Shown here piece by piece: positions 6,990 through 45,063 of a DNA stretch of 64,000 nt. The notes under the pieces are model-generated. The model searched no databases, was not told the origin of the DNA, and saw only the letters and a list, made by a program, of their open reading frames with translations. A program made the position numbers and the translations under genes. The stretch is taken from positions 121,462 to 185,461 of the forward strand of contig JAZDJP010000084.1 in the NCBI GenBank assembly GCA_043803805.1, in the 5' to 3' direction. Position 1 is the first letter of the stretch; every line of letters begins with the position of its first letter. This stretch comes from Planctomycetota bacterium (GTDB taxonomy: Bacteria; Planctomycetota; JAZDJP01).

Positions 6990-6993
6990 CCGG

Positions 6994-19800: not shown

Positions 19801-22800
19801 GGGGCTTGTCACGCGGACCGCGGCCGGATCCGGGGATGCCGGTGGAAATTTCGCCCAGGTCGAAAATGACGATGAATACACCCATAACGAGGCTGGGGAA
19901 GCGTGGAAGCGGCGGGATCTGGCGCGCAAGACCGCCGACGGGGCGCCCCTGCCGCCGGCGGAATTCACGAGCGACAGGCGTATCGCCGCCGGGGAATCCG
20001 TGTCCTATGATCCCGAAGTGGCGGATGCCGTGACGGTGACGCGGACCGATGGCGCCGACAGGACGGTCGAGACGAATTTCCCCGACGGGAGCCGTGTGAC
20101 GCGCGTCTTCAATAAAGACAATACGGTGGCCGCGGAAACCCTCGACGGGAGCGGTGTCGCCGGCGCGAGGGACGCCATCAGGACCCGCACCACGGTGTAC
20201 CGGTATAACGGCCTGGGACATCTCGTTGAAGAGGAGCGGCCCGACGGCGCCATCACGCGAACCACCCGGGACGGCGCGGGTCGGGCGGTGTTCGTCACGG
20301 CTCCGGGCGGGCGCGTGATTCACAATGCCTTTAACGCGAAGGGCGAGCTTCTTTCCACGACGAGCGGATGGGGCTCCGCCCATCCGATCACGCGAAGCTT
20401 CACGTATGACGACGCCGGACGCCCGGCAAGCGTTTCCCAGGGGGATCTCACCACGGAATACGCCTATGACGCCCGCGGGAATGTCGCCGAGGTCCGGTAC
20501 CGGCTCGGGGGCGGCGCGAATGTCGAAACGGAACGTTATCTCCACGACTCCCGGAATCGTCTCGTGACGCACATCCGGCGGGACGGGGCGATCCTGGCGT
20601 TCGTTTATGATCCCGATACGGAACACCTCGCTCGCGTCGAGGATGGCGTCGGGCGGGCCTTGCGGGAATTCTCGGATTTCGACGCGGCGGGCCGGCCGCG
20701 GACAATCGTGGAGAGGAACGGCCCCGGCGCCGAGGACGACGTCACCACGCGGAAGGTCTACAATTCCTACGGCCAGCTCGCGCGGGATCGCCAGGAGGCG
20801 TTCGGGTATTTCAACGACGTGATGAGTTACCATGCCGACGGACCCACGAACCGGGCCGGCAACCGGACGGCCCTGGAATATCCGTCGGGCGGATTCGCGG
20901 CGTATTATTCCCACACCCGGACGAATCTCCTCGAGAAAATCGGCACCGCGCCGGGCGGCCAAAACATACTCCGGTACGTCCATGACGGATTCGGGCGGAT
21001 CGGCGGCTTCACGGTGAATTCCGGCGGGGCCTCGCCGGTGACGGCGGAGATGACCCGGGACAGGAACGGCTGGCTCGTGGCCATGAATGTTGGATCTGTC
21101 GGGGAAATGGCCCTCACCCGGAACCTGGACGGGCTGAAGACCGTCGTCGAGCGGCCCGGGGTGCGGGGGGCGTTCGGCTACGACGCGCATGACCGGCTCA
21201 CAAGCGCGGCCTACGCGGGTCCGGGCGGATTCGGTCCGGATGAATTCAACCTGGACGATCTCGACAATCGGACAAACGGGAATCTTGTCGCGGGGACGTC
21301 CACGGATTACCGCATCACGGATTCCACGCGGATTCTCGACGTCCGGACGCCCGCCGGGACCCATGCGGTGCTCTATGACGCCCGCGGCAACACCATCGAG
21401 GACGATCACCACCGGTACGTCTGGGACGATTTCGACCGGCTGGCGCGGGTGGAGAACAAACGCGCCCGGGTCGAATTCAATCCGTGGACGCCTGTGGATT
21501 CCGTCGCGGACGCGCCGATGGTGGACGGGAAAAACGCCCGGCGCATCACGATTGTTTATGAATCGCCGAAACTGATGAATTACGCCGACGTCGCCGGCAT
21601 CGCCCCGGAGAACGACATCCGTGTGGAATTCAAGGGCGGCGAACTGGCCGGCGAAGAGATCTGGGTGAGGACGCCGGTGACGGAGCGCGGGGCGGGGCCG
21701 GGGGGGATTCGGATTGAATTTCTGAACGTGGAGACGGCGAAATTACGCATTACCGAAATCGAGGCCGGCGGCGTTCCGGGGATGGCGGCCGCGGTGGCGG
21801 GGCTGAAGACCGTCCATCCCTGGCGGAACATTATTTATGCCTATGACGGCGACGGCCGGCGGGTCGCGAAAATCGCCGATAATGAAAAATACCGATACGT
21901 TTACGACGGCGTTCAGTTGATTGAAGTCCGCCGGATCCGGGACAATCGTCTCCTGTGGCAATTCGTCTACGGGGCCGCCGTCAACGAACCCGTGGCGATG
22001 TACGATCGGGAGGGCGGGGCGGGGTATTTCTTCGTTCGGGACGACCTGAATAGTGTTCTCGCGCTCACGAACGCCCAGGGGCAAATCGTCGAAAAATACG
22101 AATACACGGCGTACGGGGAAACCCGGATCATTGACGCAATAACGGGCCTCGCCCGTTATTGGGATGACGACGCGGATGACGCCAATCACGACGGCCGGAT
22201 TGACGCCGGCCTGCCCGGCGCGGGTCTCCCCGCGACGCCCCAGGTGCCCCAAACCGCCTCCGACGCCGGAAATCCATTCGGTTATGCCGGAATGTGGCGC
22301 GACACTCACACCGGGCACTACCACACACTCTACCGCGAATACTCTCCCGAGATGGGCCGCTGGCTCACCCCCGATCCGGCGGGATATGTGGACGGTCAGA
22401 ACCTCTACGCCTACTACCCGGGGCCGAATGGAGTGGATCCGTTGGGGTTGGCGTTGTACGCGTTTGATGGGACGTGCAACGACCGGTCCAAGATGAAGAA
22501 CCCGACGAATGTGGCGGTGCTTTGGGATTTGTATGAAACAACCAATGAAAAAGGAAGATTTTACATCAAGGGGGTAGGCACAAATTGGTGGTCAAAAGTT
22601 TTTGGAGGTTTTTCAGGTATAGGAGCTGGGATTCGATTGGAAAAAGCGTATGAATCACTTCTGGAGAATTTCAGAAATCATGATGAGACGATAGATATTA
22701 TCGGTTTCAGTCGCGGCGCGGCAACGGCGTTGGAATTTGCCAATATGATTGCCACAAGGGGAATTCCCGATGAAAGTACCGCAAAGACAGTGGCGGATCC

Positions 22801-23314
22801 CCGGCGACCTGGGACGAAGGTTATCTATGGGAGAAAGCGGATCCCTCAAATTCGGTTTTTGGGGTTGTTTGACACGGTTGCCTCCTTCGGATGGCCGGGA
22901 AATTCATGGGATCCGTTTATGCGCCTGACCGTTCCATCCAACGTGGAGAATGTCCGTCATGCGGTGGCGCGGGATGAGGTAAGAAGTTTGTTCCCGCTCA
23001 CATCCATGCTCAAGGGGCCGGGTTGGGAGGATCCGACGGGTCGGATATTGGAACAGGTATTTCCGGGGGTACACAGTGATATTGGCGGCGGCTATGACAA
23101 TAATCTGGCTTCCTACGCCCCGCTGCGTTGGATGTGGCAGCAGATGACGGATTGCGGTATTCAAATGGGGGAATTGGACGAAAAGTACACGCAAGACATC
23201 GCAGGTCCAATCGAGTATCATGATTCGCGCTATCGAATGGACAAGTTTCGTTCGGGGTGGCGTCGCTTGTGGGGTGGGACCTACAAACGAAAAATCTACT
23301 ACCAGCGGAAATAG
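13823..23314 (+). CDS. Giant Rhs/YD-repeat lipoprotein (3163 aa) with Ig-like/IPT-TIG and TSP3-like N-terminal domains, an RHS core ending in DPLGL, and a C-terminal DUF2235/Tle1-like lipase toxin domain
   Basis: Lipoprotein signal MLKRIPVAISLVLLVSCGGGG. IPT/TIG-like block VTEVAPAAGAMAGGTALIIQGQGF. Acidic DPSRDSDDDGIADYRDPDP calcium-binding-type repeat. Dozens of YD repeats (YDAAGNR, YAYDARGN, YRYNGLGHL...). RHS-associated core ...YREYSPEMGRWLTPDPAGYVDGQNLYAYYPGPNGVDPLGL. Then a tip with FDGTCND, GFSRGA (GxSxG), FDTVASFG and HSDIGGGY motifs. Marked G+C drop from about 22450 onward. Confidence 0.85.
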   Translation: MLKRIPVAISLVLLVSCGGGGGGGGLSSGDPGGDSDGDGGSAVYLPVAVTVVAPHGIIVTNAGSVTVRVSYVFKSESPAGGSSRETPFARAAASEACRLELLMDGVAVFSRAVDPATNGEATFVLDLTGAVEGTHALAAALSGGGRIIKSADGALVIDRTAPSVDDLEPASGLFTNIRRPVFRGHLMDGFSGPDGDAVEVILDGTTLPGVSVAGEDFTVTPAADLADGAHTVEVRLRDRAGNRYSLERQFTVDTAPPDQSPGLESPAASDGQFLFVVAGARLTVTGALPVDGAGVAVSVPAPVIVAGSGAAGGRWHVDLDGIPAGVSVVTLRAVDRAGNHGPAMNFAITRTTDAISVTEVAPAAGAMAGGTALIIQGQGFTSDTDVRIGGASPGNVRILSPSEIRVVAPAGVEGDAELVVRRPDGAEARLAAAFRYYDPSRDSDDDGIADYRDPDPLVPFVVISDPADGILTNRGFIELSGDVDASAGGVFVRNISMPGAAAAAEMDAGGRFRAAGVPLAAGENIIEARAVDAQGAFAARHRITIRADRTSPGLTLSPPGGRVLDQAPGNVAALAATFTESGFSGGMAPATFRAWRVSWRDLSRVLQSDDDGMIAGILWNLGHLSCDILSLSVTELTGRFSATETGATLTDAGEAGFEKFRKNVVIGIVADKAGNVSFASADYAVDDIRPTAVIQMPVAGGVYPSDQAIPVTVQLADDFSGLNLAGLEVVLNGDDVTSVTGPVLDPPTGGPGTPVLATTLRFNIPAELISPGAKNYLEITGIRDHENNEIAAGVVFVADAIIPCDFINVWSDFSRNEVVVTPGEEDTSVTGQGLFAMGVEGADLGVAGIVLDRISMDTCRLIVTGRRPGVFIWDPFPFMVAGPCAVEELLGVMVKGARFVKAPSPDVISPGVRLGIVEGEILQASGADSTDMATVEFGGVVDDSLGREFEGAGPTVIDGSGRSLPLTAIHYPDHMHTRIDGTVGRETGRYEFRGCFPLRRGRNTLVFRAKNALGRFGVARAGIEVTDRDGDPLTNDFSIRVARVENAAAVEGEIGVAEGYFGAGDDKTLHLRLPRVGGDILLAGTDSAPFAGAVVRSARFVLQREGDVDPAGIMPGLPVFLVRAGDRIEVASAGWTEGTSVRLADLAFAGNGRAASVVQDGASLKITASLGDAELEAYEVVYGPIPSVSASVKSFDSRGIVPPNAAGETPYTQTVTLSRVPGTPVFRSDAVMFQTGSSGAGMRHRMAPEGRITVTADFPPGIPDLSRSVAAGGYRSTLQEAVTGNTPEGGRGVQLHNGEFVYSATDLAGNTAYGPGFAFTRTYRSRIHHDGPLGHGWDHVLNQRMVARDEDGDGDMDVVFYDGSGRRDVFTGDGNGAFLPPPGRYEKWDVAAGEARRLIGDGSVCRYVGLAARPGEYVLDSVTDRWGNRLSLFHDAAGRLVRVNDPHDRDTVLRYEGNGRISEIEDFAGRIVTFTYDAAGDLARVEHPDVDAEGMGHIRPAWRYTYETGDPDPARNHNMTAVTSPRGNGVLENEYDSSDRVVLQRTGPALTEFAYPAGETRVTDPRRQVWKFVWSAGHPELAERIIDPTLAMTYFEHTADLETGVVIRPLGNKIEYRYDIASPNPVKRGNLLETLISPDARGTGGSGAVLRTRLTWTAAADFPGGPGAAEDWNFVKTSEDEAGFVTTYDYDAAGNRVAVRPPGVTLSDGRKDDRTVRYRFNSRGQVEAVRTPDGAMTWHEYYPSNGRPADPSDAEGFHRREIRSVGRGYDIASPVPTNPRESADWLVTEYAMDSRGNCVTVTDETGRASLRVFDALDRSVETLSPPVFGAARNRTRQYFDADGNSVRTVTETPVPRDPGGTAHDVHTSTVTRTVDAWDRVLEVSEDGRVTTYAYDAGGLQIMRRMPSGIRHTTGYDARGLPERDVDGDDDDDAATAPAGARVVEMACDANGNVIGTKENTVPVSEQRHDGYDRLETTRDPRRGALVRQWRDNRGLVTRTAAGSGDAGGNFAQVENDDEYTHNEAGEAWKRRDLARKTADGAPLPPAEFTSDRRIAAGESVSYDPEVADAVTVTRTDGADRTVETNFPDGSRVTRVFNKDNTVAAETLDGSGVAGARDAIRTRTTVYRYNGLGHLVEEERPDGAITRTTRDGAGRAVFVTAPGGRVIHNAFNAKGELLSTTSGWGSAHPITRSFTYDDAGRPASVSQGDLTTEYAYDARGNVAEVRYRLGGGANVETERYLHDSRNRLVTHIRRDGAILAFVYDPDTEHLARVEDGVGRALREFSDFDAAGRPRTIVERNGPGAEDDVTTRKVYNSYGQLARDRQEAFGYFNDVMSYHADGPTNRAGNRTALEYPSGGFAAYYSHTRTNLLEKIGTAPGGQNILRYVHDGFGRIGGFTVNSGGASPVTAEMTRDRNGWLVAMNVGSVGEMALTRNLDGLKTVVERPGVRGAFGYDAHDRLTSAAYAGPGGFGPDEFNLDDLDNRTNGNLVAGTSTDYRITDSTRILDVRTPAGTHAVLYDARGNTIEDDHHRYVWDDFDRLARVENKRARVEFNPWTPVDSVADAPMVDGKNARRITIVYESPKLMNYADVAGIAPENDIRVEFKGGELAGEEIWVRTPVTERGAGPGGIRIEFLNVETAKLRITEIEAGGVPGMAAAVAGLKTVHPWRNIIYAYDGDGRRVAKIADNEKYRYVYDGVQLIEVRRIRDNRLLWQFVYGAAVNEPVAMYDREGGAGYFFVRDDLNSVLALTNAQGQIVEKYEYTAYGETRIIDAITGLARYWDDDADDANHDGRIDAGLPGAGLPATPQVPQTASDAGNPFGYAGMWRDTHTGHYHTLYREYSPEMGRWLTPDPAGYVDGQNLYAYYPGPNGVDPLGLALYAFDGTCNDRSKMKNPTNVAVLWDLYETTNEKGRFYIKGVGTNWWSKVFGGFSGIGAGIRLEKAYESLLENFRNHDETIDIIGFSRGAATALEFANMIATRGIPDESTAKTVADPRRPGTKVIYGRKRIPQIRFLGLFDTVASFGWPGNSWDPFMRLTVPSNVENVRHAVARDEVRSLFPLTSMLKGPGWEDPTGRILEQVFPGVHSDIGGGYDNNLASYAPLRWMWQQMTDCGIQMGELDEKYTQDIAGPIEYHDSRYRMDKFRSGWRRLWGGTYKRKIYYQRK
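22451..23314 (+). other. Polymorphic C-terminal toxin domain of the Rhs protein: DUF2235 / T6SS Tle1-like alpha-beta-hydrolase lipase (sub-feature)
   Basis: Begins directly after the DPLGL autoproteolysis motif (22436-22450). Motifs YAFDGTCND, IIGFSRGAATALEF (nucleophile elbow), LGLFDTVASFG and GVHSDIGGGY. Sequence is conspicuously AT-richer than the upstream 8.6 kb of the same gene. Confidence 0.7.
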
Positions 23315-23321
23315 GAGGAAT

Positions 23322-23679
23322 TATGCGACTTGGCATGGTTGTTGTGTGTGTGTGTGTGGCAGGATGTATGAGTCAAAAATATAGCATCATAGTTAGAAAT
23401 ACGGGCAGCGAGAAAATCACTCATGCCAGCGTGAATTATAATGATTTCAAGTCCGGAGGAGGCAATTTGCTTCCGGGGGGAGGAGCACAGCACGCATGGC
23501 CCGACGAGCCCATCCCTGAGAAAGCGAAAGTGGTGTGGCGTGACGCGAAGGGGGTGGATCACGAGAAGGATGTGGAGGTGAAGAAGAACATTCCGAAGAA
23601 CATCCGCGGGGACAAGGACCTCATATTCGAAATTGGCGATAACGACGATGTCACGATGAAAGTGAAGGCGGTGAAGTAG
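23322..23679 (+). CDS. Small periplasmic lipoprotein; candidate cognate immunity protein for the Rhs lipase tip
   Basis: MRLGMVVVCVCVAGCMSQ... has a lipobox (VAGC). 119 aa, low G+C like the toxin tip, and starts 8 bp after the Rhs stop. Tle immunity proteins are typically periplasmic lipoproteins. The immunity role is inferred from position only. Confidence 0.5.
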
Positions 23680-24052
23680 AGAAGAGGATTTTTCGGGGAA
23701 TCTGGGCATATGTGGTGTGGCGGGGTTCGGGAAGCGTTCTCGCGGGACGCGTGTCGCCGACATCCTGTCGGCTCCGCGCTCGGAGATGCCGCCCCTCCCG
23801 ACGTCCTGTCTCCGCGTGAGCGGGACGTTGTCCCCCGTGCGGCTTCGCCACGGGGGACTCACGTCCCGGGGCGTCATCTACGCCCGCTCACCCGCCTCCC
23901 TCGCCCCGCCATTGCCGCGACCCTCGGCCTCATGGAAACCATGCTTGTCATGGGGGTGGGGAATGACCTTGACCGGTGTTGGCGGGGGCAGTAGCATCCG
24001 GGCGCAGAAGGAGCCGAATACGTTCATCGTTGGGCTCTGAAAGACGGAGGTT

Positions 24053-27000
24053 GTGCCTGTGAGCAACGCGTCGCGTCAACAGGTGGTCGTCGAGGCAGTT
24101 CGTCAATGGCAGACCCGGTTGTTGCAACTTGACCGGCGAAACGCGCTCCTCTACTTCTCGATGGGGAGGCGCGGGATAACACTTCGGAACATCGAACCAA
24201 ACGTTCTTCTCGAACGGCTCGCAACGTCACGCTCGGGGCTCGCGTTCACGTACGCGGAGCAAACCCGCGCGAGCGGTGGCGATCACTTCGACATCCCCGC
24301 AGCGTCCGACGATGCGGAGCTTGAGCCGCAAGTGCGCGTACGCCCCGGTGACCTCGACACGGATCTCGCGCCTCTTGAACTTCAGAAGAGGCTTGGCGCA
24401 CTCAACAGGAGGAGTCGGGAATGGCAGGAGGAGCAAGGACTCAACGTCTTGTTTATCGCGCTCGGTTTCCTGCGCTGGGTGGACGAGGATCAGGAACCGG
24501 CATGTTCGCCGATCCTCCTCGTTTCGTGTGAACTGAAACATGAGTCACCTCGTGATCCATACGCGCTCGTGGGGGAAGATTCTGATGACGCCGTCGTGAA
24601 CCCCACGCTCCGCCACAAACTCACTACGGCGGCAAATATCATCCTTCCCGAGATCGGCGAAGAAACGGTTGCGGAGTACTTGGCCGCGGTCTCGCGTCTC
24701 ATCGCGGGCCGTGAGGGCTGGTCCGTAGAAACAACCATCGTGGTTGCGACTTTTCCTTTCTCTAAACTCGCGATGTGGCAAGATCTCGATCAGATGGCCT
24801 CGACCGGTGTCACTCATCCTCTTGTCTGCCGCCTCGCAGGCGATGCAGATGTGCCCATCGAGGAATCGGAGAGCGGAGCAGTCGCAATCCCGAAGGACGA
24901 TATCCGGCTTCAGGGAGCGAAACTTGATGATCTGCTCGATGTCCGCGATCAACACGCCGTTGTGGATGCCGACTTCAGTCAACTTCGGGCGATCACGCTT
25001 GCGCGGTCGGGGAAGAATCTCGTGATCCATGGTCCACCGGGAACGGGGAAGAGCCAGACAATCGCCAACATTATTGCCACGCTTATCGCCGAGGGGCGTC
25101 GTGTGCTTTTTGTGAGCGAAAAGACGGCGGCGCTTGACGTCGTCAAGCGGCGACTCGCGGACGTCGGACTCGGTGCGTTCTGCCTTGATCTTCATAGTGA
25201 TCGCGGCAAGAAGGCCTCGGTGTATGCACAATTGCGCGAAGCACGGGATCAGCCTTTGGCCGCCGATGCGGATGTGTTTCCCTATGAGCGGTTACTCGCG
25301 CGACGTCACGAACTGAACACTACCGTGAGAGCGCTTCATGAAGTTCGCCAGCCACTCGGCTTGTCTGTTTTTACCGTGCATGGGCGCGTGGCCGCGATTC
25401 GCGAGGTGCCACAAGTAAATGTCCTTGTTCGTGACGTTGCCACCCTCGACGAAGATCGCCTGCGCCGCATCCAAGATGCCGCGCGTAGGATCGCTCGCCG
25501 CATATTGGAGTTTTGCGATCACCACACGAGCCGATGGCGTGCGCTCGGCGCCGTTGCCCCTTCCCCACGCCTAGCGGATGCCATACGTGGTGATCTCATG
25601 GCCATAAGTTCGGCGATCGACTCCATCGTGCGGGTGCTTGCGCGCGCGTCCGCGGCCTGTGGCGTCGATGCGCCGACAACGCTGGTTGAGGCGGAAAATC
25701 TACTGCGTCTGCTCAGTCACCTCATGAATGCTCCGGGATCGGTTCCTGCGCAATGGATCGAGTCCGAGGGGCTGGGACGTGCGCGAGATAGTGGGGACGC
25801 ATTGCGGCAAGAGCTCGCAGATCGGAAAAGATATCTTGATACTCTCTCATCGTCAATCAGCGGCGCACCTCCGGGACTACGAAGCCTCGATTGGCTTGAC
25901 ATCGCGCACGCTGTTGCGGCTGAGGCCACGCGTTGGGCCAGGGTAGCCGGTTCCGAATGGGATACAGTCTTGCTCGCGAACCCCCGGATTTGTGCGACGA
26001 AGTGGAATGACATTTCAACATCACTTGACGCGCATCTCGAAGCGTCGATCCACCTGCAAGTAATGCTAGGTGTTACGCAGCCCAATGATTCGCGCGCGGC
26101 CGCGGAATCAGCTGTGAGCGTTGCCACCCGACTACTACGGATAGGCAAGGTTCCCGTCACGTGGAACAGTTTGGAAGCAACCACCGGAATTTGCTCGGTG
26201 GTCACTGCCGCGCACAAACTTCGCGATGAACTTGTGGCGATGAGGCGAACGCTCGGGAGCCTTTTCGGCCCCGAGATCGTTGAGTGCGTTGACGACAAGA
26301 TGCTCGTTCGATTCCGGACCGACCATCAGTCGTTCTGGCGATGGTTGCGACCGGCGTATCGGCATGACTACAGGATGATCCGAGGTTGTCTCAAACAGCC
26401 CGTGAAGTTATCGCTGGACGCTTGCGTCAAGGCGATCGAGCAATCGTTGGCCGTCCGAAAACTTCGTTCGCGTTGGGCGGAAACGGAGCATCAGCTCCAA
26501 GTTGTTCTCGGTGACCGATTCGCCGGCCTTGAGTCAGATTGGACAGGCATCGAATCCGATCTTGTTGCCGTTGCGGACATCTACCGCGAGTTCCCTGCAC
26601 AGACGGTTGCGATTCGCTCAATTCTCGTGGATGCTCCGACGCTCGCGCTCCTCAACGATGCAATTCGCGCGGTGAAAGAACGCGCAACGGTTCTGGATAC
26701 CATCTGGCCGGAAGGCCTTTCCCATCGAGACGCCCATATTCCGGATATGTCATCTGACGCGCGAGCGTTCGCCAACACTTCGGGAAGGATTGGCGACATC
26801 GTTGATGCTCTCGGTCCCTTTGTGCGGCCTTTGGTCAATCTCGATGGCCTCATCAAGTTGCTGAAGGTCTGCGTGCAACTACAGAAACTCGAAGAGCATG
26901 CCGCTGCGGTTTTTGAAACGCGCTCTCGCGAGATCGGCACACTCTTTTCCGGATGGTCAACGGACTTCGACATATTCAACCGCACGATCGCCTGGACTCA

Positions 27001-29695
27001 AGAGATCGTTGCGCTGATGCGGTGTCCTTTGCCTGAAGGGTTGGTGGATCGCGCAACACGATCGCGTCCGTCGGCAACATACGAAGTTGAGATACGTGCG
27101 GTCATTGAGGCAATTAATCTGTTACGCTCCACCTGTTCTGCCTCGACCTCCATGTTCCCTGAGGCGCAGTGTCCCTGGAAATCCTGGGGACAAGCACCGT
27201 TTGCTGTCGCGCGGGCATGGTGCGATGATCTTTGCGCGCACGCTGACGAGGCCAGCGATTGGGTGGAGTACCGGTCCGCAGTCGAAGATTTGAATAATGA
27301 GATCGGTGCGGAAATGGCTGATGCTCTACGAGCAGCCACGGACGACGGGGAAATGGTTCCCGATATCGTGCTTCGCCACGTGTATATTTCCTGGCTTGAA
27401 TACATCTACCAGGAAGTGCGTGAACTCCGATTCTCGCCGAAAGACTTGGAGGGCACCGTAAAAAAAGAGTTCAGAGAACTCGATGCGCGTCTCCCGCGAG
27501 CGGCGCGCGAACGCGTCCGGGCGAAATGTCTCGCGGCGTATCCCTCGGATCGATCGAACTCGAACGGCATGGGTGAACTCGGAGTGTTGGGCCATGAACT
27601 CTCGAAGCGAAAACGCCTGATGCCCGTTCGCAAGTTGGTGGCAAGGATTCCCAACTTGCTCCAACGGTTGAAACCCTGTTTTATGATGAGTCCATTGGCC
27701 GTGAGTCAGTACCTGCCGCGTGGCGTCACTGACTCCGACACCTTGGTCTTCGACGCGGTAATCTTCGACGAGGCTTCGCAGATCTTTCCGGAAGATGCGA
27801 TTCCCGCGATCGCGCGTGGTCGCCAGTGTATCGTCGTCGGCGACCAGCAACAACTTCCCCCTTCCAGTTTCTTCCGGAGCGAAGATGTAGTGGATGAAGA
27901 TGGCGAAGCGACGACGGACAATCGTTTGCTCGATGTCGAGAGCATCCTCGACGTTCTGGTCGGGATGCGCGGGGCTGGTGTGGACGATGTCCATTTGCAG
28001 GTGCATTACCGGAGTCAGCATGACGACCTGATTCGGTATTCGAACCACTACTTTTACGACGACCGACTGCTGACATTCCCCTCCGCTTTGGGCACTTGTA
28101 AAGGCTTGGGGATTCGATCCGTCTATTTACCAGAGGGACGTTTCGAAGCCGGTGGAAGCAGGACGAACCGGGTGGAGGCGGAACAGGTCGTTCGCATCGT
28201 ATTCGAGTTGATGGAAACGCAACCCCCGATCGAGAGCATCGGTGTCGTTGCGTTGTCGCGGCCGCAGGCGGACCTCATCCAGGAGTTGATCGATCAGTAT
28301 CGGTTGTCGGACCGGCGATTCGACGAACGGTTTTCCGATGAGATGCACGAACGTTTCTTCGTGAAGAACTTGGAGAACGTTCAGGGGGATGAACGAGATC
28401 ATGTTATCTTGAGCATTGGGTACGGTCCGACAACGGCCTCGGGCGCTGTGCCCAATCGGTTCGGTCCAATCAACGTTGAGGGTGGACATCGGCGTCTGAA
28501 CGTGGCTGTGAGCCGCGCTAGGAGAAGTATCACGGTTGTGCACTCGCTTCGCCCGGAAGACATTCACTCCGAGGTGGAGGGGGCCAGGTTGCTTCGCCGC
28601 TACCTTGAGTTCCTTAGAAGCGGCGAGGCGTCAATTGAAGGCGTTGTGAATTCATCACCCGGCGGTGAAGCCGAGAGCCCGTTCGAGGATGCCGTGGGTC
28701 GCGCGTTGGAGCGATTGGGATATCGCATCGCACGCCAAGTGGGATGCGCGAAGTACTCGATCGATATCGCGGTCAAATCCGAGGACGGGAGCGGGTTCGA
28801 CCTTGCGATCGAGTGCGATGGCGCCGCCTATCACAGATCACCGAGTGCGCGAGATCGTGACCGGTTGCGTCAGGAGATTCTTGAACGCATGGGATGGCAG
28901 GGGCGAATTCATCGTGTCTGGTCGACGGCATGGATTCGAAACCCGAAAGCAGAACTTGCTGCGATTGAACATGCCATACGTGAAGCGCGTTCCGCACCAC
29001 GCGGGGGGCATACGTCAGCAAGCCTTCGCTTTGAAGTGCCGCCGAAGACACAGACTGCGACGCGTCAGGAAGGACATATCACCCCCAATCCATCTTCCGC
29101 GATGCCAGCGATAGAACGCCCACTGCTCGCAACCTATGTGAAAGTGGATCTGGATTGCTTCGCTAACGTCACCGATTTGAGACAGGTGCCTTCGTCACGA
29201 GTTGCGGATATGATTGATGTTGTCGTGAAAGTGGAGGGTCCCGTCCACGTCGATATAGTAGTCGAACGCATTCGGCGCCACTATCGGTTCGGTCGTGCAG
29301 GACGGCTCGTTCGAGACGCGGTACTGGCGGGATTGAAGGTGGCGCTTCGACGCGGAACCGTTCTGTGGTTGCCTCTGCTGGTCTCCAACAAGCAAAGGAG
29401 TGACTTCCTCGTCGTGGCCGCGGATCTGGAGATTGTGCCCCGCGGCCCCTTGCAGGATGGGACAGTGCGAGATATTGACCATCTCTGTGATGATGAGATC
29501 GAGGTTGCCGTGGTGCGTGTCGTGCGTGCGATGGTTGGCGCGACGAAGAACGAGGTGGTCACAACAACAGCTCGCGCGTTAGGCTATGCTCGAATTAGCG
29601 ACCACATCGAAAAACGTATATGCAAGTCAGTCGACCGGCTAATTGAGACGCGGAAACTTGTCGAACGGGTAGGTTCCTTGGTGTTGTGTGATTGA
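24053..29695 (+). CDS. 1880-aa DUF4011 / SF1 (Upf1-like AAA_11+AAA_12) helicase / Vsr-DUF559-like endonuclease / DUF3320 protein; Hhe-like candidate antiphage defence protein
   Basis: GTG start with the GGAGG-containing stretch gacggagg 7 bp upstream. DUF4011 hallmark LLQLDRRNALLYF. Walker A LVIHGPPGTGKSQTIAN. Walker B/motif III VIFDEASQ...CIVVGDQQQLPP. Motif IV HYRSQ, motif V NVQGDERDHVILSIGYG, motif VI LNVAVSRAR. Nuclease block YSIDIAVKSEDGSGFDLAIECDGAAYHRSPSARDRDRLRQEILERMGWQGRIHRVWSTAW. DUF3320-like tail. G+C is lower than the flanks. Confidence 0.8.
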   Translation: MPVSNASRQQVVVEAVRQWQTRLLQLDRRNALLYFSMGRRGITLRNIEPNVLLERLATSRSGLAFTYAEQTRASGGDHFDIPAASDDAELEPQVRVRPGDLDTDLAPLELQKRLGALNRRSREWQEEQGLNVLFIALGFLRWVDEDQEPACSPILLVSCELKHESPRDPYALVGEDSDDAVVNPTLRHKLTTAANIILPEIGEETVAEYLAAVSRLIAGREGWSVETTIVVATFPFSKLAMWQDLDQMASTGVTHPLVCRLAGDADVPIEESESGAVAIPKDDIRLQGAKLDDLLDVRDQHAVVDADFSQLRAITLARSGKNLVIHGPPGTGKSQTIANIIATLIAEGRRVLFVSEKTAALDVVKRRLADVGLGAFCLDLHSDRGKKASVYAQLREARDQPLAADADVFPYERLLARRHELNTTVRALHEVRQPLGLSVFTVHGRVAAIREVPQVNVLVRDVATLDEDRLRRIQDAARRIARRILEFCDHHTSRWRALGAVAPSPRLADAIRGDLMAISSAIDSIVRVLARASAACGVDAPTTLVEAENLLRLLSHLMNAPGSVPAQWIESEGLGRARDSGDALRQELADRKRYLDTLSSSISGAPPGLRSLDWLDIAHAVAAEATRWARVAGSEWDTVLLANPRICATKWNDISTSLDAHLEASIHLQVMLGVTQPNDSRAAAESAVSVATRLLRIGKVPVTWNSLEATTGICSVVTAAHKLRDELVAMRRTLGSLFGPEIVECVDDKMLVRFRTDHQSFWRWLRPAYRHDYRMIRGCLKQPVKLSLDACVKAIEQSLAVRKLRSRWAETEHQLQVVLGDRFAGLESDWTGIESDLVAVADIYREFPAQTVAIRSILVDAPTLALLNDAIRAVKERATVLDTIWPEGLSHRDAHIPDMSSDARAFANTSGRIGDIVDALGPFVRPLVNLDGLIKLLKVCVQLQKLEEHAAAVFETRSREIGTLFSGWSTDFDIFNRTIAWTQEIVALMRCPLPEGLVDRATRSRPSATYEVEIRAVIEAINLLRSTCSASTSMFPEAQCPWKSWGQAPFAVARAWCDDLCAHADEASDWVEYRSAVEDLNNEIGAEMADALRAATDDGEMVPDIVLRHVYISWLEYIYQEVRELRFSPKDLEGTVKKEFRELDARLPRAARERVRAKCLAAYPSDRSNSNGMGELGVLGHELSKRKRLMPVRKLVARIPNLLQRLKPCFMMSPLAVSQYLPRGVTDSDTLVFDAVIFDEASQIFPEDAIPAIARGRQCIVVGDQQQLPPSSFFRSEDVVDEDGEATTDNRLLDVESILDVLVGMRGAGVDDVHLQVHYRSQHDDLIRYSNHYFYDDRLLTFPSALGTCKGLGIRSVYLPEGRFEAGGSRTNRVEAEQVVRIVFELMETQPPIESIGVVALSRPQADLIQELIDQYRLSDRRFDERFSDEMHERFFVKNLENVQGDERDHVILSIGYGPTTASGAVPNRFGPINVEGGHRRLNVAVSRARRSITVVHSLRPEDIHSEVEGARLLRRYLEFLRSGEASIEGVVNSSPGGEAESPFEDAVGRALERLGYRIARQVGCAKYSIDIAVKSEDGSGFDLAIECDGAAYHRSPSARDRDRLRQEILERMGWQGRIHRVWSTAWIRNPKAELAAIEHAIREARSAPRGGHTSASLRFEVPPKTQTATRQEGHITPNPSSAMPAIERPLLATYVKVDLDCFANVTDLRQVPSSRVADMIDVVVKVEGPVHVDIVVERIRRHYRFGRAGRLVRDAVLAGLKVALRRGTVLWLPLLVSNKQRSDFLVVAADLEIVPRGPLQDGTVRDIDHLCDDEIEVAVVRVVRAMVGATKNEVVTTTARALGYARISDHIEKRICKSVDRLIETRKLVERVGSLVLCD

Positions 29696-29729
29696 GTTCA
29701 TGGAAGTAAACGGGCTCAAATTGTAATTT

Positions 29730-29820
29730 GACGGAACGGAATCATGGCTTATCCCACCGTCGAACCGGATTGCATCCGGGGCCTCGCGCGCCGCGTGGCG
29801 GAAATCGCCGCGGAACCGCG
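29730..29820 (+). repeat. Direct repeat copy 1 of the URO-D-like gene leader plus first ~27 codons (~88% identical to 32358-32458)
   Basis: aacggaacggaatcATGGCTTATCCC...TGCATCCGGGGCCTCGCG(C/T)GCCGCGTGGCGGAAATCGCCGCGGAACCGCG is shared. Both copies encode MAYP...CIRGLA(R/C)RVAEIAAEPR. Confidence 0.7.
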
Positions 29821-29839
29821 CTCGATGGACGCTGGGGCG

Positions 29840-32173
29840 ATGAAGATGGGTCGGATTGCTTTCCGGGGCGCGTTGGCGCTGGCCTTCACGGTTTTTCTGG
29901 CCTTGCCCGCGCGCGCGGCCGAGCCGGACACGGCCGGCGACGCCGGCGGCTGGCGGCCGGTGGGCATCTCCGGGGGCGGCTCGATGTTCGGGCCGGCCAT
30001 CAGCCCGGTTGACCCCAGGCTCATGATCATCAATTGCGACATGAGCGGCGCCTACCGCTCGGCCGACGGCGGCCGGAACTGGCGGATGATCCACCACGCC
30101 CAGTTGGGCGGGAACACCTTCTGCCGCCCGGCGTTTCATCCCACGGAAGCCCGGACCGTCTTCGCCGCCTCCGGCTGGTCGGGAAATCTCAAGGTCAGTC
30201 GCGACGCCGGCGTGACGTGGGCGGACATCGGCAACCTCCCGGCCGGCCTCAAGGGCGAAATCGCCATTGACCCCGGGGAGCCCAAGATGATGCTCGCCGG
30301 CGTCAGGGATGAGGTCTGGCGCTCGGCCGACGGGGGCCTCACCTGGGCCAGGTGCGCCGGGCCCAAGGGCGCGGCGGCCGGCTTCCACTTCGACCAGACC
30401 AGCCCCTCCGGGCGGCGCCGGTGCTTCGCGGCCACCGCCGAGGGCGTCTGGCGCTCGGACGACGGCGGCGCGAACTGGGCGGAGAAGTCGGCGGGCCTGC
30501 CCTGGCGGGGGATGCGCAGTTTCGCGGGAGGGTCGAGCGCGGCCGGGAATGTCTGCGCGCTCTACGGTGCGGTGCCCAGCAGGGAGCAGGACGGCAAATT
30601 CGCCGGCGGCGTCTTCCGTTCGACCGACGGCGGCGAGATCTGGGAGTCGGCCATGGGCGAGGGGATCAACAAGGACGTCCGCGCCGCCGACCCGTGGGCC
30701 ATGGGCGGCATCGCCGAGTACCGCTGGGTGCTGGCCACGGACGCGAAGCCGCTCACGGTCTACGCGCTCAACACAAACACCGGCGTGAAGCCGCCGCACC
30801 ACGCCACGGTCTACCGCTCCGACGACGGCGGGCGGACCTGGCGCGCCACATTCACGCCCGACCAGCGCTTCGGGGGCCTCAACGTCGAGCTCGACTGGCG
30901 CACGGCCGGCGCCGGGCAGTTCTACCAGGAGGTCCCCTTCGGCGCGGCGGTCTGCCCGTCGGATCCCGACCGGGTGGTCTTCTGCGGCTCGATGGGATGC
31001 TACCTCACCGAGGACGGTGGAAAGAGCTGGCGGTCGGGCCACACCGCGCGCGCCGCCGGCGACGCCGGCAAGGGGCCGGACTCCCGCTGGCTCTGCAACG
31101 GTCTGGTGGTCACCTCGACGTGGCATTACTACGCCGATCCCTTCGAGCCGCGGAGGCGCTACATCGCCTACACCGACATCGGCTTCGCGCGCTCGACGGA
31201 CGCGGGCGCGAGCTGGATGTGGTGGGGGCCGGGCCGCTGGGCGCCCTGGCAGAACACCTGCTACGAGCTCGCCTTCGATCCGGAGACCAGGGGCCGCGTC
31301 TGGGGCGCCTTCTCGAACGTCCACGACATCCCCAACGACAACGTCATCTCCGGCCGGCACAAGGCGGACCGCCCGGGAGGCGTCTGCTTGAGCGCCGATT
31401 TCGGCACGATCTGGAAACCCTGCGGAACGGGGCAGCCCGCCGCGCCGGCCACCGCGGTGGTCCTCGACCCCGGGAGCCGCGCCGGCGCGCGGACGCTCTA
31501 CGCGGCCTTCTTCGACCAGGGCGTATACAAGTCGGTGGACGACGGCGCGACCTGGACGAAGGCCGGCAAGGGGCTGGGCGCCCCCGGGAACATGCGCGTT
31601 TGCCGGCTGCATCGGCACCCCGACGGGACGCTCTTCGCGCTGGTCACCGCCAAGCGCGAGGGCAAGCGCTTCATCCCGGAGGGGCCGGGGCTCTACCGCT
31701 CGACGGACGGCGCGGCGATCTGGGAGCCGGCGGGCGCCTCGCGGCCGCTCCTCTGGCCCAAGGACTTCGCCGTCAACCCGCGCGACAGCCGGACCATCTA
31801 CGTGGCCGCGGCCGACGCGGGGGCGGAGAAGCAGGGCGGGCTCTACCGCACCTCTGACGGGGGAAAAACCTGGACGCTCCTGGCCCGCAAGGGGCCGGAG
31901 CACTTCGGCGTGGCGCTCCATCCCCGCCGGCCGGGCTGGATCTACATGACTCTCTGCGAGGGCGCGCCGGGATCGGGCCTGTGGCTCAGCCGCGACGACG
32001 GCGCCAGCTGGGCGCCCTTCGATGATCTGCCCTTCAGGAACATCCAGAGGGTGGAGTTCGTCCCGGGCGAGGAGTCCGTCATCTACGTGACCACCTTCGG
32101 CGGCAGCGTCTGGCGCGGGCCGGAGGAGCCGCGCGGGGGCGGAACCGTGGGGGGTGTGAACGGTGAATTGTAA
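29840..32173 (+). CDS. Secreted BNR/Asp-box repeat protein (sialidase/VPS10-like beta-propeller fold)
   Basis: Signal peptide MKMGRIAFRGALALAFTVFLALPARAAEP, then about eleven SxDxGxTW-type Asp-box repeats (SRDAGVTW, SADGGLTW, SDDGGANW, STDGGEIW, SDDGGRTW, TEDGGKSW...). The track ORF 29744..32173 adds a 32-aa N-terminal extension that is a duplicated leader of the downstream gene. Confidence 0.65.
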   Translation: MKMGRIAFRGALALAFTVFLALPARAAEPDTAGDAGGWRPVGISGGGSMFGPAISPVDPRLMIINCDMSGAYRSADGGRNWRMIHHAQLGGNTFCRPAFHPTEARTVFAASGWSGNLKVSRDAGVTWADIGNLPAGLKGEIAIDPGEPKMMLAGVRDEVWRSADGGLTWARCAGPKGAAAGFHFDQTSPSGRRRCFAATAEGVWRSDDGGANWAEKSAGLPWRGMRSFAGGSSAAGNVCALYGAVPSREQDGKFAGGVFRSTDGGEIWESAMGEGINKDVRAADPWAMGGIAEYRWVLATDAKPLTVYALNTNTGVKPPHHATVYRSDDGGRTWRATFTPDQRFGGLNVELDWRTAGAGQFYQEVPFGAAVCPSDPDRVVFCGSMGCYLTEDGGKSWRSGHTARAAGDAGKGPDSRWLCNGLVVTSTWHYYADPFEPRRRYIAYTDIGFARSTDAGASWMWWGPGRWAPWQNTCYELAFDPETRGRVWGAFSNVHDIPNDNVISGRHKADRPGGVCLSADFGTIWKPCGTGQPAAPATAVVLDPGSRAGARTLYAAFFDQGVYKSVDDGATWTKAGKGLGAPGNMRVCRLHRHPDGTLFALVTAKREGKRFIPEGPGLYRSTDGAAIWEPAGASRPLLWPKDFAVNPRDSRTIYVAAADAGAEKQGGLYRTSDGGKTWTLLARKGPEHFGVALHPRRPGWIYMTLCEGAPGSGLWLSRDDGASWAPFDDLPFRNIQRVEFVPGEESVIYVTTFGGSVWRGPEEPRGGGTVGGVNGEL

Positions 32174-32210
32174 TTTAGAGCAATTCACGATTAACGGAAT
32201 CCTCAGTGCC

Positions 32211-32333
32211 GCTCATGGTGAGCCCTTATGAATACCCGTTCATGGTGAGCATTCCTTTAAATTACAATAATTGTCGAACCACGAACCATGAGCAGAGCAC
32301 GGGCTCATCCTTCGACAGGCTCAGGATGAGCGG
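32211..32333. repeat. Intergenic motif cluster C (half-copy GCTCATGGTGAGCCCTT, full 23-mer, AATTGTAATTT boxes, TCAGGATGAGCGG box)
   Basis: Same elements as cluster A, located between the BNR gene and the URO-D-like gene. Confidence 0.55.
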
Positions 32334-32357
32334 TTTTATCAATTCGTGAACTGCTCT

Positions 32358-32458
32358 AACGGAACGGAATCATGGCTTATCCCGCCGGAGAACTGGAGTG
32401 CATCCGGGGCCTCGCGTGCCGCGTGGCGGAAATCGCCGCGGAACCGCGGATGACGGCG
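32358..32458 (+). repeat. Direct repeat copy 2 (native 5' end of the URO-D-like gene)
   Basis: See copy 1. Confidence 0.7.
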
Positions 32459-33595
32459 ATTCTCGCCCGCTGGCGCGACGTGAGCGCCCTTCGCAAACCC
32501 GACCGCGCCCCCGTCTGGTGCAAACCCGTCGGCTGCTGGTCCGAAATCCTTCCGACGTCGTCGCTTGTGTGCCGGGATCCCGGGTTGCGGGATATCGAGT
32601 TGGAACTTCGGAAAATCGTGTTCAAGCGCGAGGTGGACGATGATACGCCGGTACCTCCATACATCGAGGCGCCGGCGGTGTTTCAGGTCACGCCCAGGAA
32701 CATTTACGGCCTTGAGATCAATCACACGCCGTCCGATTCGCCCGGGGGCGCCTGGGCGTACGATCCGCCGCTGAAAAGCGAAGCGGATTTCGATCGTCTC
32801 GTCCTGCCGGAATACCATTACGACGCGGCCGCGACGCGGGCCAACCGCGACCGGATGCGGGAGATTCTCGGGGGCGTCCTTCCTGTGAAAGTGGCCGTGA
32901 ACGTGTCCTGGGAAGGGACGCTGGGGACCGCCGCGGCCAATCTGCGGGGGCTCGAGACGATGATGCTCGACACCCTGGATCATCCGGATTGGCTGCATCG
33001 GCTCATGGCGGTCGTCCGGGACGCCGCGCTACGCCATCTGGATTGCGCCGAAGCGACGGGGGTGCTGCGCACGAACGCGTACGACCCGATGATGGGGAGC
33101 GGCCCGGTCGGCGCCATTCCGCCTGGAGGCCGGCCGACGTGCGCCAACCTCTGGTGCATGGCCAATTCGCAGGAGTTTGATCAGGTGTCGCCCGCCGCGT
33201 GGCAGGAGTTCTGCCTCGAGTACCAGAAGCCGATTCTCCGGCGCTTTGGATTCACGGGATATGGGTGCTGTGAGAATCTGACGCGAAAACTGGATGGCGT
33301 GCTCACCATTCCCAACCTTCGCATCGTGACCTGCGGCGCCTGGACGAATCTGGACACGGTCATCGAAAAAACGAACCGCCGGTATTGCATCATGTGGCGG
33401 CAAAAGGCGTCCGACGTGGTTTTTGCCAGGCGGGAGGATGAGATCCGAGGGCCCCTGGAGGACGGCGCCCGGCGTCTGCGGGGATGTTATTACCAGATCG
33501 TCCTTCGCGAACTTCAGACGATGGCCGGCCATTCCGACCGGCTCCACGTCTGGACGCGGTTGGCGAAGGAGGCGGCGGAGAAATACGCATCGTGA
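32372..33595 (+). CDS. Uroporphyrinogen decarboxylase (URO-D)-like family protein
   Basis: 407-aa cytoplasmic protein whose overall pattern resembles the URO-D/MtaA-like family common in PVC genomes. Its first ~27 codons are duplicated upstream of the BNR gene. Confidence 0.35.
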   Translation: MAYPAGELECIRGLACRVAEIAAEPRMTAILARWRDVSALRKPDRAPVWCKPVGCWSEILPTSSLVCRDPGLRDIELELRKIVFKREVDDDTPVPPYIEAPAVFQVTPRNIYGLEINHTPSDSPGGAWAYDPPLKSEADFDRLVLPEYHYDAAATRANRDRMREILGGVLPVKVAVNVSWEGTLGTAAANLRGLETMMLDTLDHPDWLHRLMAVVRDAALRHLDCAEATGVLRTNAYDPMMGSGPVGAIPPGGRPTCANLWCMANSQEFDQVSPAAWQEFCLEYQKPILRRFGFTGYGCCENLTRKLDGVLTIPNLRIVTCGAWTNLDTVIEKTNRRYCIMWRQKASDVVFARREDEIRGPLEDGARRLRGCYYQIVLRELQTMAGHSDRLHVWTRLAKEAAEKYAS

Positions 33596-43359: not shown

Positions 43360-44105
<746 letters not shown>

Positions 44106-44112
44106 ACAAAAA

Positions 44113-44136
44113 CCGCCCGAGAGGGCGGTTTTTTTA
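44113..44136 (+). terminator. Rho-independent terminator after tRNA-fMet
   Basis: ccgccc-gaga-gggcgg hairpin followed by a run of 7-8 T. Confidence 0.7.
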
Positions 44137-44203
44137 TTGATTGACTCGACCGTCAGGATTTTTACGATAGCCAGCGCTTTCGGTTGACGAAGAAGATGTG
44201 TTC

Positions 44204-44997: not shown

Positions 44998-45063
44998 AAT
45001 CCTGAAATTCCTGTCCCGCGGGCATATCCTTTCGCGTAGTCGATATGATGGGGATATCGCGAC

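Follow-up and report, generated by a model that had tools for sequence, protein, structure and literature searches.

The closest described counterparts of the gene reported here are Hhe and ProA, each a single gene whose protein carries, like ours, a DUF4011 module, a split SF1B helicase, and an MTES_1575 nuclease. Hhe is covered by the models NCBIfam NF042953 and PADLOC PDLC02194, its reference is a 1911-aa protein from Klebsiella pKP6401 (WP_021314612.1), and copies on Klebsiella plasmids are annotated with the GO term "defense response to virus." A review attributes hhe to Gao et al. 2020 (Science 369:1077); the initial annotation of our locus had credited the PADLOC authors, but neither PADLOC paper's text mentions Hhe. 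ProA is defined by NCBIfam NF058533, "anti-phage protein ProA," and has as its reference a 1963-aa protein from Klebsiella quasipneumoniae p397-1 (WP_064360768.1); a megablast search of E. coli genomes for ProA gave no match. Both NCBIfam entries carry anti-phage names. PADLOC also holds a single-gene candidate system, PDC-S37 (PDLC05009), with a model of 1550 positions. No publication behind the names ProA or PDC-S37 could be traced in the literature searched.

We analyzed a stretch of 64,000 nucleotides from a Planctomycetota contig, hereafter the window, in which one gene encodes a protein of this kind. The gene and the parts of its product are as follows.

24053..29695, + strand: helicase-nuclease gene, a 1880-aa ORF with a GTG start, encoding DUF4011, SF1B helicase, Vsr-fold nuclease, and DUF3320
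24053..24832, + strand: N-terminal alpha/beta module, aa 1-260, including Pfam DUF4011 at aa 22-190
24950..25252, + strand: first part of RecA1, aa 300-400, with Walker A GPPGTGKSQT at aa 327-336 (nt 25031-25060)
25250..27547, + strand: all-alpha insert of ~770 aa, aa 400-1165, splitting RecA1 between Walker A and Walker B
27620..28582, + strand: remaining RecA1 and RecA2, aa 1190-1510, with Walker B, GDQQQLPP, HYRS, QGDER, and RRLNVAVSRAR
28682..28978, + strand: Vsr-fold PD-(D/E)xK nuclease, Pfam MTES_1575, aa 1544-1642 (E 1.6e-31)
29129..29692, + strand: C-terminal tail, aa 1693-1880, with Pfam DUF3320 at aa 1712-1754

A Pfam profile search was run with the gathering cut-offs (DUF4011 22.2, AAA_11 27, AAA_12 27, MTES_1575 38.2, DUF3320 25, and DUF559 20.6). 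DUF4011 (94.4 bits), AAA_11 (64.5), AAA_12 (59.3), MTES_1575 (108.7), and DUF3320 (37.5) all scored above cut-off, and DUF559 fell slightly short at 20.2 bits. The search bore out the order of DUF4011, helicase, Vsr-like nuclease, and DUF3320 given in the initial annotation, and every motif quoted there was located in the protein: besides Walker A, these are LDRRNALLYF (aa 26-35), Walker B FDEASQ (aa 1238-1243), GDQQQLPP (aa 1263-1270), YRSQ (aa 1319-1322), QGDERD (aa 1444-1449), VSRAR (aa 1486-1490), and, in the nuclease, DLAIECDGAAYH (aa 1583-1594) and RDRDRLRQ...WSTAW (aa 1600-1627). The Walker B DEAS lies at aa 1239-1242 (nt 27767-27778); a second DEAS, at aa 1065, is there by chance.

Across 49 homologs sharing 39-73% identity, the catalytic residues of the helicase and the nuclease are invariant except for G330 and H1594, each of which is kept in 90% or more of them. 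Walker A is invariant from G327 to T336 save G330, helicase motifs I, II, III, V, and VI are intact, and in the nuclease the invariant residues D1571, E1587, D1589, and R1600-D-R-D1603 together with H1594 preserve the D...ExD...H core. The N-terminal module has near-invariant motifs of its own (LLQLDRRNxLLYF, WxxEQG, and GxxxWxD).

The insert in RecA1 is built of long helices, with at least four helical-hairpin repeats of ~68 aa marked by W495, W568, W636, and W704; its AF2 model has a pLDDT mostly between 85 and 93, and comparing it with itself by hhalign gave repeat self-matches with P up to ~86-87%. Our searches found no structural homolog of DUF4011 or of the insert, the latter giving generic helical-bundle or coiled-coil matches only. 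The nuclease domain is modeled with a pLDDT >90, and its assignment to the Vsr fold follows that of MTES_1575 in PMC3710099. In the tail, two helix-helix-helix-strand-strand units are predicted, which we read as putative tandem winged-helix (wHTH-like) domains; a wHTH pair overlapping DUF3320 is described in the same paper (PMC3710099). We found no solved structure of any family member, and the DUF4011 and insert folds were traced to no paper or structure searched.

In sequence, the helicase core matches the Upf1, IGHMBP2, Sen1, and Dna2 type (E 1e-13 to 1e-10), and its top Foldseek matches are IGHMBP2, Upf1, Sen1/SETX, Aquarius, Dna2, and nsp13 (E 1e-9 to 1e-7), the RecA1/RecA2 fold agreeing with that of Upf1/IGHMBP2. 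Domains 1B and 1C of Upf1 are insertions into RecA1, and the window protein likewise has accessory domains set into RecA1. It goes beyond Upf1-like helicases in its ~770-aa helical-repeat insert, DUF4011, Vsr-fold nuclease, and wHTH tail. In Dna2, by contrast, the nuclease is of another type and sits at the N-terminus.

The domain order had initially been matched to Hhe, and this part of the annotation did not stand. The window protein scores 765.6 bits on the NCBIfam Hhe model against a cut-off of 2000, whereas the genuine Klebsiella Hhe scores 2735 bits; the PADLOC Hhe model matches only the C-terminal half of the window protein. Hhe shares the single gene, the N-terminal DUF4011, the split SF1B helicase, and the MTES_1575/DUF559 nuclease, and BLAST aligns the helicase-nuclease blocks at 42% identity. 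When the two proteins are aligned, identity is 45% in the helicase core and 53% in the nuclease, but 27% in DUF4011 and 15% in the insert. The window protein extends ~235 aa past the nuclease, DUF3320 included, while the Klebsiella Hhe gives no DUF3320 match and lacks this tail, of which 79 positions can be aligned at 16.5% identity.

ProA has the same order as the window protein through to the DUF3320 tail, and its model is the top-scoring NCBIfam model. The score of 1152.8 bits is nevertheless under the cut-off of 1500; five relatives of the window protein score 1133-1236 bits, all below 1500, and the Klebsiella reference scores 2224.9. Falling under both curated cut-offs counts against a defense role. 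Identity to ProA is 44% in the helicase core and 26% in the tail. The reference ProA has ~370 extra N-terminal residues, its DUF4011 beginning at aa 375 rather than at aa 22, and a shorter insert that cannot be aligned by BLAST with that of the window protein. Residue 6 of one relative (P0028) aligns with position 352 of the ProA model. A 1876-aa "DUF3320 domain-containing protein" on the Ralstonia solanacearum megaplasmid (QLR11987.1) has the architecture of the window protein, without the N-terminal extension, and is alignable with it up to the final residue (33-36% identity by BLAST, 46% in the core). This protein lies narrowly over the ProA cut-off at 1521.4 bits, unlike the window protein, and since it does so without the extension, the ~350-370 N-terminal residues may not be essential to ProA. 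The Ralstonia protein is conserved on 108 records, whereas the clade of the window protein is scattered.

The top PADLOC match of the window protein is PDC-S37 (E = 0, 1222.3 bits, three stretches, reaching the C-terminus). The same model gives 1267 bits for the true Hhe, 1183 for ProA, and 1798 for the Ralstonia protein, the best fit among the sequences tested; because it is this broad, the match assigns the window protein to the superfamily without singling out a specific system. The helicase core is about equally far (44-46% identity) from Hhe, ProA, and the Ralstonia relative, and the insert is just 15-16% identical to any of them. As judged from these alignments, the window protein is therefore in a third clade, next to Hhe and ProA, whose members come mostly from uncultured Planctomycetota, Gemmatimonadales, and Chloroflexota. 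The wider family has thousands of members, with ~5,600 DUF4011 cluster representatives, and this is an ordinary further one and no new kind of system; within the window, the result is a routine refinement of the annotation and holds no surprise.

The base composition of the gene is foreign to its surroundings, as had been suspected and as its GC, GC3, dinucleotide, and codon-bias profiles all bear out. Its GC content is 57.8% against 62.4% for the whole window, in the lowest 4% among windows of the same size, and its GC3 is 0.62 against 0.72-0.81 in typical genes of the window. Its dinucleotide-signature distance of 165 x10^-3 exceeds that of all scanned windows (mean 63, SD 29), the highest of which (164.4, from position 24001) itself overlaps the gene; by this signature, the gene is the most atypical 5.6-kb stretch within the 64-kb window. 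Codon bias is 0.348, compared with 0.155-0.32 for reference genes. The gene had also been described as AT-richer than flanks of 65-70% GC; its lower GC and GC3 hold, but the flanks are not uniform, with ~50% GC in the Rhs toxin tip and immunity gene, 66% in the 373-bp spacer, and 72% in the BNR gene. Searching metagenome contigs for exact 31-mers of the locus gave no match. When the downstream 407-aa gene was used as an anchor in GTDB genomes, none of 39 loci exceeded 61% identity, was syntenic, or carried the helicase. An Rfam search for structured RNA near the gene detected nothing there, its only matches being three tRNAs at other places in the window.

The immediate neighbors are those that the initial annotation had named, a Rhs toxin-immunity pair on one side and a direct-repeat cassette on the other.

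13823..23314, + strand: Rhs protein, 3163 aa, whose DPLGL motif (nt 22436-22450) precedes a low-GC Tle1-like/DUF2235 lipase toxin tip
23323..23679, + strand: 118-aa lipoprotein with the lipobox VAGC and no Pfam match, likely the immunity protein of the Rhs lipase tip
23969..23997, + strand: sigma-70-like promoter match TTGACC-17-TAGCAT, ~60 nt 5' of the helicase-nuclease start
29731..32448, + strand: cassette with a BNR/Sortilin gene (29744-32173) between 90-nt direct repeats at 29731-29820 and 32359-32448

The window has no recognized defense gene within 10 kb of the helicase-nuclease gene, an observation that speaks against a defense role. An ORF at 23717-24040 was considered as an upstream partner gene and discarded, as it appears noncoding.

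We propose that this helicase-nuclease of the DUF4011 superfamily stands alone and was acquired horizontally, that it belongs to the third clade next to Hhe and ProA, and that it most likely serves as a single-protein defense against phages or plasmids, a reading that we hold to be probable. A single-gene immune role is plausible from database names and guilt by association. The genomic contexts of ten relatives (43-71% identity to the window protein) bear on it most directly. Nine of the ten loci, a small sample without a statistical background, adjoin defense or mobility genes: IS21 and integrases; integrases with AlpA and HEPN_AbiV; a Type I R-M system with Mrr and a toxin-antitoxin pair; serine recombinases; MazE/PIN and Cas6; an MmeI-type R-M system with GmrSD; and a Shango-like trio of TerB, BrxC-like ATPase, and DEAD genes. 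These loci have no synteny in common, even at 63-71% identity, and no conserved flanking ORF, the small ORFs beside the relatives being unrelated to each other or to ORFs of the window; the initial view that the gene has no partner holds. The lack of synteny and of a partner gene, together with the nine loci near defense or mobility genes, argues for an autonomous, mobile anti-phage or anti-plasmid function. The label of defense candidate holds, and the 1222 bits of PDC-S37 accord with it. Having been called the best candidate for an acquired, poorly characterized immune module does not make the gene novel, in a family thousands strong.

An alternative to host immunity is a weapon in competition between mobile elements, or an addiction module, carried as cargo that would, for example, exclude rival plasmids or prophages and benefit the host only secondarily. 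Relatives adjoin serine/tyrosine recombinases, IS21/IS110/IS5 elements, and DUF2924/RAMA genes; they occur on 498 plasmid records, 350 of which are predicted to be conjugative or mobilizable, and in 20 IMG/VR contigs predicted to be viral, a mobility that also counts for the preferred reading of defense. The window gene, on the other hand, is flanked by no integrase, transposase, or att-like repeat, and the closest tRNA genes are >14 kb away. The mechanism of such a weapon overlaps that of defense, and the sequence does not separate the two; we regard this role as unlikely. Slightly less probable again in our judgment is housekeeping genome maintenance, in which the protein would process replication or repair intermediates (flaps, R-loops, or mismatches) as Dna2 or Vsr does, and the defense neighbors would be incidental. 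The Dna2/Upf1-like helicase core and the nuclease of the Vsr (very-short-patch repair) fold would suit this role, and one relative (L053) lies in housekeeping surroundings, between RtcB/Archease and peptidase genes, which also counts against the defense reading. In P. aeruginosa, a large DUF4011 gene, PA14_RS11765, belongs to the core genome, being present in every isolate (PMC10250203), and with the 108 Ralstonia megaplasmid records, this indicates that some lineages keep such genes stably. Against maintenance stand the foreign composition of the window gene, the varied contexts of its relatives with their integrases, IS, and defense genes, and the presence of family members on conjugative plasmids, flanked there by IS elements, and in viral contigs; moreover, the gene is dispensable in Ralstonia, as IS5 or a group II intron interrupts some of its copies (H30-H31).

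The initial annotation had singled out the Rhs neighbor as a notable pairing, and the gene might be tied functionally to the toxin island, for example as orphan effector, as accessory factor, or in connection with immunity. It does share a strand with the Rhs immunity gene, from which it is separated by 373 bp on the 3' side, and it too is low in GC. The spacer between them is host-like in GC, however, which makes two separate low-GC patches, and DPxGL, PAAR, and secretion-associated domains are absent from the protein. Ahead of the helicase-nuclease gene is the promoter-like site listed above (one site, where shuffled sequences would give 0.2), which is a hint only that the gene has its own promoter. 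None of the relatives' loci examined has a Rhs, Tle1-like, or immunity homolog, and the pairing therefore looks incidental; a functional tie to the Rhs locus is in our estimation highly improbable.

Under the preferred reading of single-protein defense, the Upf1-like SF1B motor would load on single-stranded or branched nucleic acid of the invader and move along it, driven by ATP, presumably 5'->3' by analogy with related motors. The two putative C-terminal winged-helix domains would hold the DNA, and the Vsr-fold PD-(D/E)xK domain would nick or cut it, with the DUF4011 module and the ~770-aa insert holding the enzyme inactive until it meets a cue specific to the invader. The enzyme could destroy invader DNA directly or bring about abortive infection, the sequence fitting either. 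The anatomy of the protein is directly evident, and the coupling between its parts is what we infer from it. If active, the protein would extend one-protein helicase-nuclease immunity of the Hhe/ProA type to Planctomycetota and other little-studied phyla, and it marks out a well-populated clade that the present curated NCBIfam Hhe and ProA models leave unnamed. As the family mechanism, like the DUF4011 and insert folds, was traced to no paper or structure searched, a tractable representative would be useful. The third clade might even be a functionally distinct DUF4011 immune helicase in which the insert of ~68-aa repeats senses phage proteins or DNA structures and gates the Vsr-fold nuclease; we consider this quite unlikely, and if true, it would be a new coupling of pattern recognition to an SF1B motor.

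The gene is, as first described, one unbroken ORF, intact over its 1880 aa. Its true start is likely the GTG at 24059, giving a protein of 1878 aa. This start is favored by a ribosome-binding site ahead of it and by the length of the corresponding NCBI protein.

24046..24050, + strand: Shine-Dalgarno sequence GGAGG, 8 nt ahead of GTG 24059

That NCBI entry, [quoted passage not shown] is 1878 aa long and 100% identical to the gene product.

The helicase gene is a single uninterrupted ORF, as the initial annotation had claimed, and every motif quoted there was found in the window protein where expected. The domain-level description was likewise correct, and both the DUF4011 domain and the Vsr-like nuclease were detected by Pfam above the gathering score, as were the other domains listed below. 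Walker B proper is FDEASQ at aa 1238-1243; the earlier 'DEAS' (aa 1065) resembles the motif by chance. As a GGAGG (24046-24050) lies 8 nt from GTG 24059 and only 2 nt from GTG 24053, GTG 24059 is the likelier start. An NCBI entry of 1878 aa ('MAG: DUF3320 domain-containing protein [Planctomycetota bacterium]'), located on a 185.7-kb contig, is 100% identical to the window protein.

Domains (Pfam) and active-site motifs (alignment of 49 full-length homologues, 39-73% identity) of the window protein
Helicase gene ORF: 24053-29695, + strand, GTG start, 1880 aa, no interruption
DUF4011: aa 22-190
AAA_11: aa 308-370 and a second stretch
AAA_12: aa 1311-1496
REase_MTES_1575: aa 1544-1642 (E 1.6e-31)
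DUF3320: aa 1712-1754
Walker A: G327-PPGTGKSQT
Walker B: D1239-EASQ
Helicase motifs: G1263-D..QLPP, H1318-YRS, Q1444-GDER, R1480-R.NV...RA
Nuclease residues: D1571, E1587-C-D1589-G, H1594, R1600-DRD

All of the listed catalytic residues are invariant across the 49 homologues except G330 and H1594, both conserved at 90% or above. Because the helicase and nuclease residues are conserved in this way, the window protein looks active as an enzyme. The helicase core matched IGHMBP2, Upf1, and Sen1 in sequence and IGHMBP2, Upf1, Sen1/SETX, Aquarius, Dna2, and nsp13 in fold, and its motor is therefore Upf1-like SF1B. In AlphaFold models built from the same alignment, the N-terminal module (aa 1-260) is alpha/beta, RecA2 and the nuclease are modelled confidently, and an all-helical insert of ~770 aa (aa 400-1165, window 25250-27547; pLDDT mostly 85-93) interrupts RecA1, separating Walker A from Walker B. 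This insert, the fastest-diverging part of the family, contains helical-hairpin repeats of ~68 aa (hhalign self-matches with P up to ~86-87%), each with a conserved P/G-x-x-W (W495, W568, W636, and W704, spaced 68-73 aa apart). The tail (aa 1693-1880) is modelled as two helix-helix-helix-strand-strand units, consistent with the '2 wHTH overlapping DUF3320' that Anantharaman et al. 2013 (PMC3710099) described together with a 'Vsr REase fold'.

The proposed match to the single-protein Hhe system did not hold. The window protein scored 765.6 bits on the NCBIfam Hhe model (NF042953; cut-off 2000) and 534 bits on the PADLOC Hhe model, the latter over its C-terminal half only. The Klebsiella plasmid Hhe reference (2735 bits on the Hhe model) shares DUF4011, the helicase, and MTES_1575/DUF559 with the window protein but lacks DUF3320. 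ProA (NF058533) was rejected as well, with 1152.8 bits against a cut-off of 1500; its K. quasipneumoniae plasmid reference (2224.9 bits) has the window protein's domains plus ~370 further N-terminal residues. Five relatives gave the same pattern (1133-1236 bits for ProA, 735-785 bits for Hhe). A Ralstonia megaplasmid protein with exactly the architecture of the window protein narrowly exceeds the ProA cut-off (1521 bits), whereas the window protein falls under it. PADLOC PDC-S37, which gave the window protein 1222 bits, is a broad model: its score is 1267 bits for Hhe, 1183 for ProA, and 1798 for the Ralstonia protein.

Identity to the window protein in the helicase core is 44% for ProA, 46% for the Ralstonia protein, and 45% for Hhe, but only 15-16% for each in the insert; in the tail it is 26-28% for ProA and the Ralstonia protein, the Hhe tail not being comparable. 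In a crude neighbor-joining tree of the core, the window protein and all its metagenomic relatives clustered together, with the three references falling outside. Given the profile scores and conserved motifs, the window protein almost certainly belongs to the DUF4011 helicase-nuclease superfamily; the scores, regional identities, and tree place it in the DUF3320-bearing part, as an equivalog of neither Hhe nor ProA. The crediting of Hhe to the PADLOC authors also needs correction: according to a 2025 review, hhe is one of the systems from Gao et al. 2020, and the text of neither PADLOC paper refers to Hhe.

The window protein is of a known, widespread kind, and its clade carries no name in curated models. 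Among the candidates scored, the whole protein had more than 4,500 matches at E <1e-10; its full-length relatives belong to Planctomycetota, Gemmatimonadales, and Chloroflexota as well as to numerous unnamed metagenomic bins. The N-terminal 300 aa with DUF4011 alone matched 5,654 cluster representatives at E <=1e-3 and 97 at <=1e-30 (among 1.84 billion). Relatives were encoded on 20 IMG/VR contigs and in 498 plasmid records, the plasmid relatives all being below 60% identity; these records include 241 from Klebsiella (mostly hhe in the sampled rows) and 108 Ralstonia megaplasmids. The Ralstonia relative (L048) often lies at a near-constant coordinate, and in some strains either IS5 or a group II intron disrupts it (plasmid matches H30 and H31); it is conserved yet dispensable.

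The helicase gene has a GC content of 57.8% (window, 62.4%) and a GC3 of 0.62, against 0.72-0.81 in typical window genes. Its dinucleotide-signature distance from the remaining window (165 x10^-3) exceeds that of all scanned 5.6-kb windows (mean 63, SD 29), and its codon bias relative to the pooled window genes is 0.348, the pooled genes themselves giving 0.155-0.32. The lower GC content noted initially was thus confirmed, but the flanks are not uniformly 65-70% GC. GC drops from 65.8% to ~50% immediately downstream of the DPLGL motif of the Rhs gene (nt 22436-22450) and does not recover across the toxin tip and immunity gene; a 373-bp spacer of 66% GC precedes the helicase gene, and the downstream BNR gene has 71.9% GC (GC3 92.7%). 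The helicase gene thus forms an independent low-GC patch, distinct from the Rhs tip. Other patches of 52-57% GC (3001-5000, 44001-45000, and 60001-62000), that at ~44 kb adjoining tRNA-Met and tRNA-Phe (44029-44276), may be further acquired segments.

Loci carrying relatives of the helicase gene (identity; neighbors)
L001: 71%; IS21 istAB, tyrosine integrases, RadC
L003: 67%; two integrases, AlpA, HTH_17, HEPN_AbiV
L004/L005: 66%; Type I R-M directly downstream, Mrr, NucS-like, Gp49/HTH pair
L006: 52%; serine recombinase, DUF2924
L007: 63%; MazE/PIN, Cas6
L050: 68%; serine recombinase, DUF2924, RAMA
L051: 51%; MmeI-type R-M upstream, GmrSD_N and Hypoth_Ymh downstream
L052: 50%; TerB_N/TerB/TerB_C, BrxC-like ATPase, and DEAD helicase (Shango-like trio) directly upstream
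L053: 43%; mostly housekeeping genes

A check of neighborhood conservation found no synteny among these loci, and their small flanking ORFs are mutually unrelated. Such a pattern of neighborhoods is typical of single-gene cargo of defense islands and mobile elements and argues against a core housekeeping role for the window protein's clade. The defense genes directly adjoining the helicase relative lie at 1526-7514 in L052 (the Shango-like trio), at 4444-7770 and 16024-17619 in L051 (the MmeI-type enzyme plus GmrSD), and at 16575-22389 in L004 (the Type I R-M operon). Additional systems that lack annotation may be present among the numerous ORFs without domain matches in these metagenomic defense islands. 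In the window, the helicase gene is flanked by the Rhs gene with a Tle1-like lipase tip, the lipoprotein immunity candidate, BNR/Sortilin, and a PQQ beta-propeller, with no defense genes among these neighbors.

The intact SF1B motor and Vsr-fold nuclease, the two wHTH-like domains, and the large repeat insert occur in a gene of foreign composition whose relatives sit in mobile or defense contexts, and we consider anti-phage or anti-plasmid defense its probable function, with modest confidence. In the proposed mechanism, the motor would track 5'->3' along invader nucleic acid at the expense of ATP, the wHTH pair would bind DNA, and the nuclease would cut; more speculatively, DUF4011 and the insert would gate the enzyme. 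A genome-maintenance role was also considered; in its favor, a DUF4011 gene is core in P. aeruginosa (PMC10250203) and the Ralstonia relative is conserved, while the relatives' neighborhoods speak against a housekeeping function in the window protein's own clade.

Defense is likewise preferred to a role as a weapon between mobile elements, which we considered, and to a functional link with the Rhs locus, for which support is poor. The Rhs toxin-immunity neighbor highlighted in the initial annotation is present in the window, but no Rhs, BNR, or other window genes were found in the relatives' loci, so the Rhs pairing is not a family trait.

The Rhs protein itself (13823-23314, 3163 aa) carries its Tle1-like/DUF2235 lipase tip after DPLGL (PF09994, 1.2e-37). 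The following gene (23323-23679) encodes a 118-aa lipoprotein (lipobox VAGC; no Pfam match) that is likely the Rhs immunity protein. A (TG)8 run (23343-23358) lies within its signal-peptide coding region (peptide VVVCVCVAGC), and the gene might be phase-variable because slippage at this run would change the frame. Downstream of the helicase gene, a 90-nt direct repeat (29731-29820 and 32359-32448, 93% identical) spans, in each copy, the ribosome-binding site and first 26 codons of a gene, namely BNR/Sortilin (29744-32173) and the next gene (32372-33595). The sequence AATTGTAATTT occurs just 5' of the first copy (29720-29730) and recurs where the BNR gene stops (stop codon, 32167-32177). This arrangement suggests that insertion of a very GC-rich cassette duplicated the start of the gene it targeted. 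The 407-aa ORF at 32372-33595 has no Pfam domain. Its homologues, found at 39 loci in MAGs (Planctomycetota, Verrucomicrobiota, Kiritimatiellae, Lentisphaerae, Latescibacterota, Hydrogenedentota, Armatimonadota, and Chloroflexota), are mostly 48-61% identical to it, and the ORF represents a widespread uncharacterized family.
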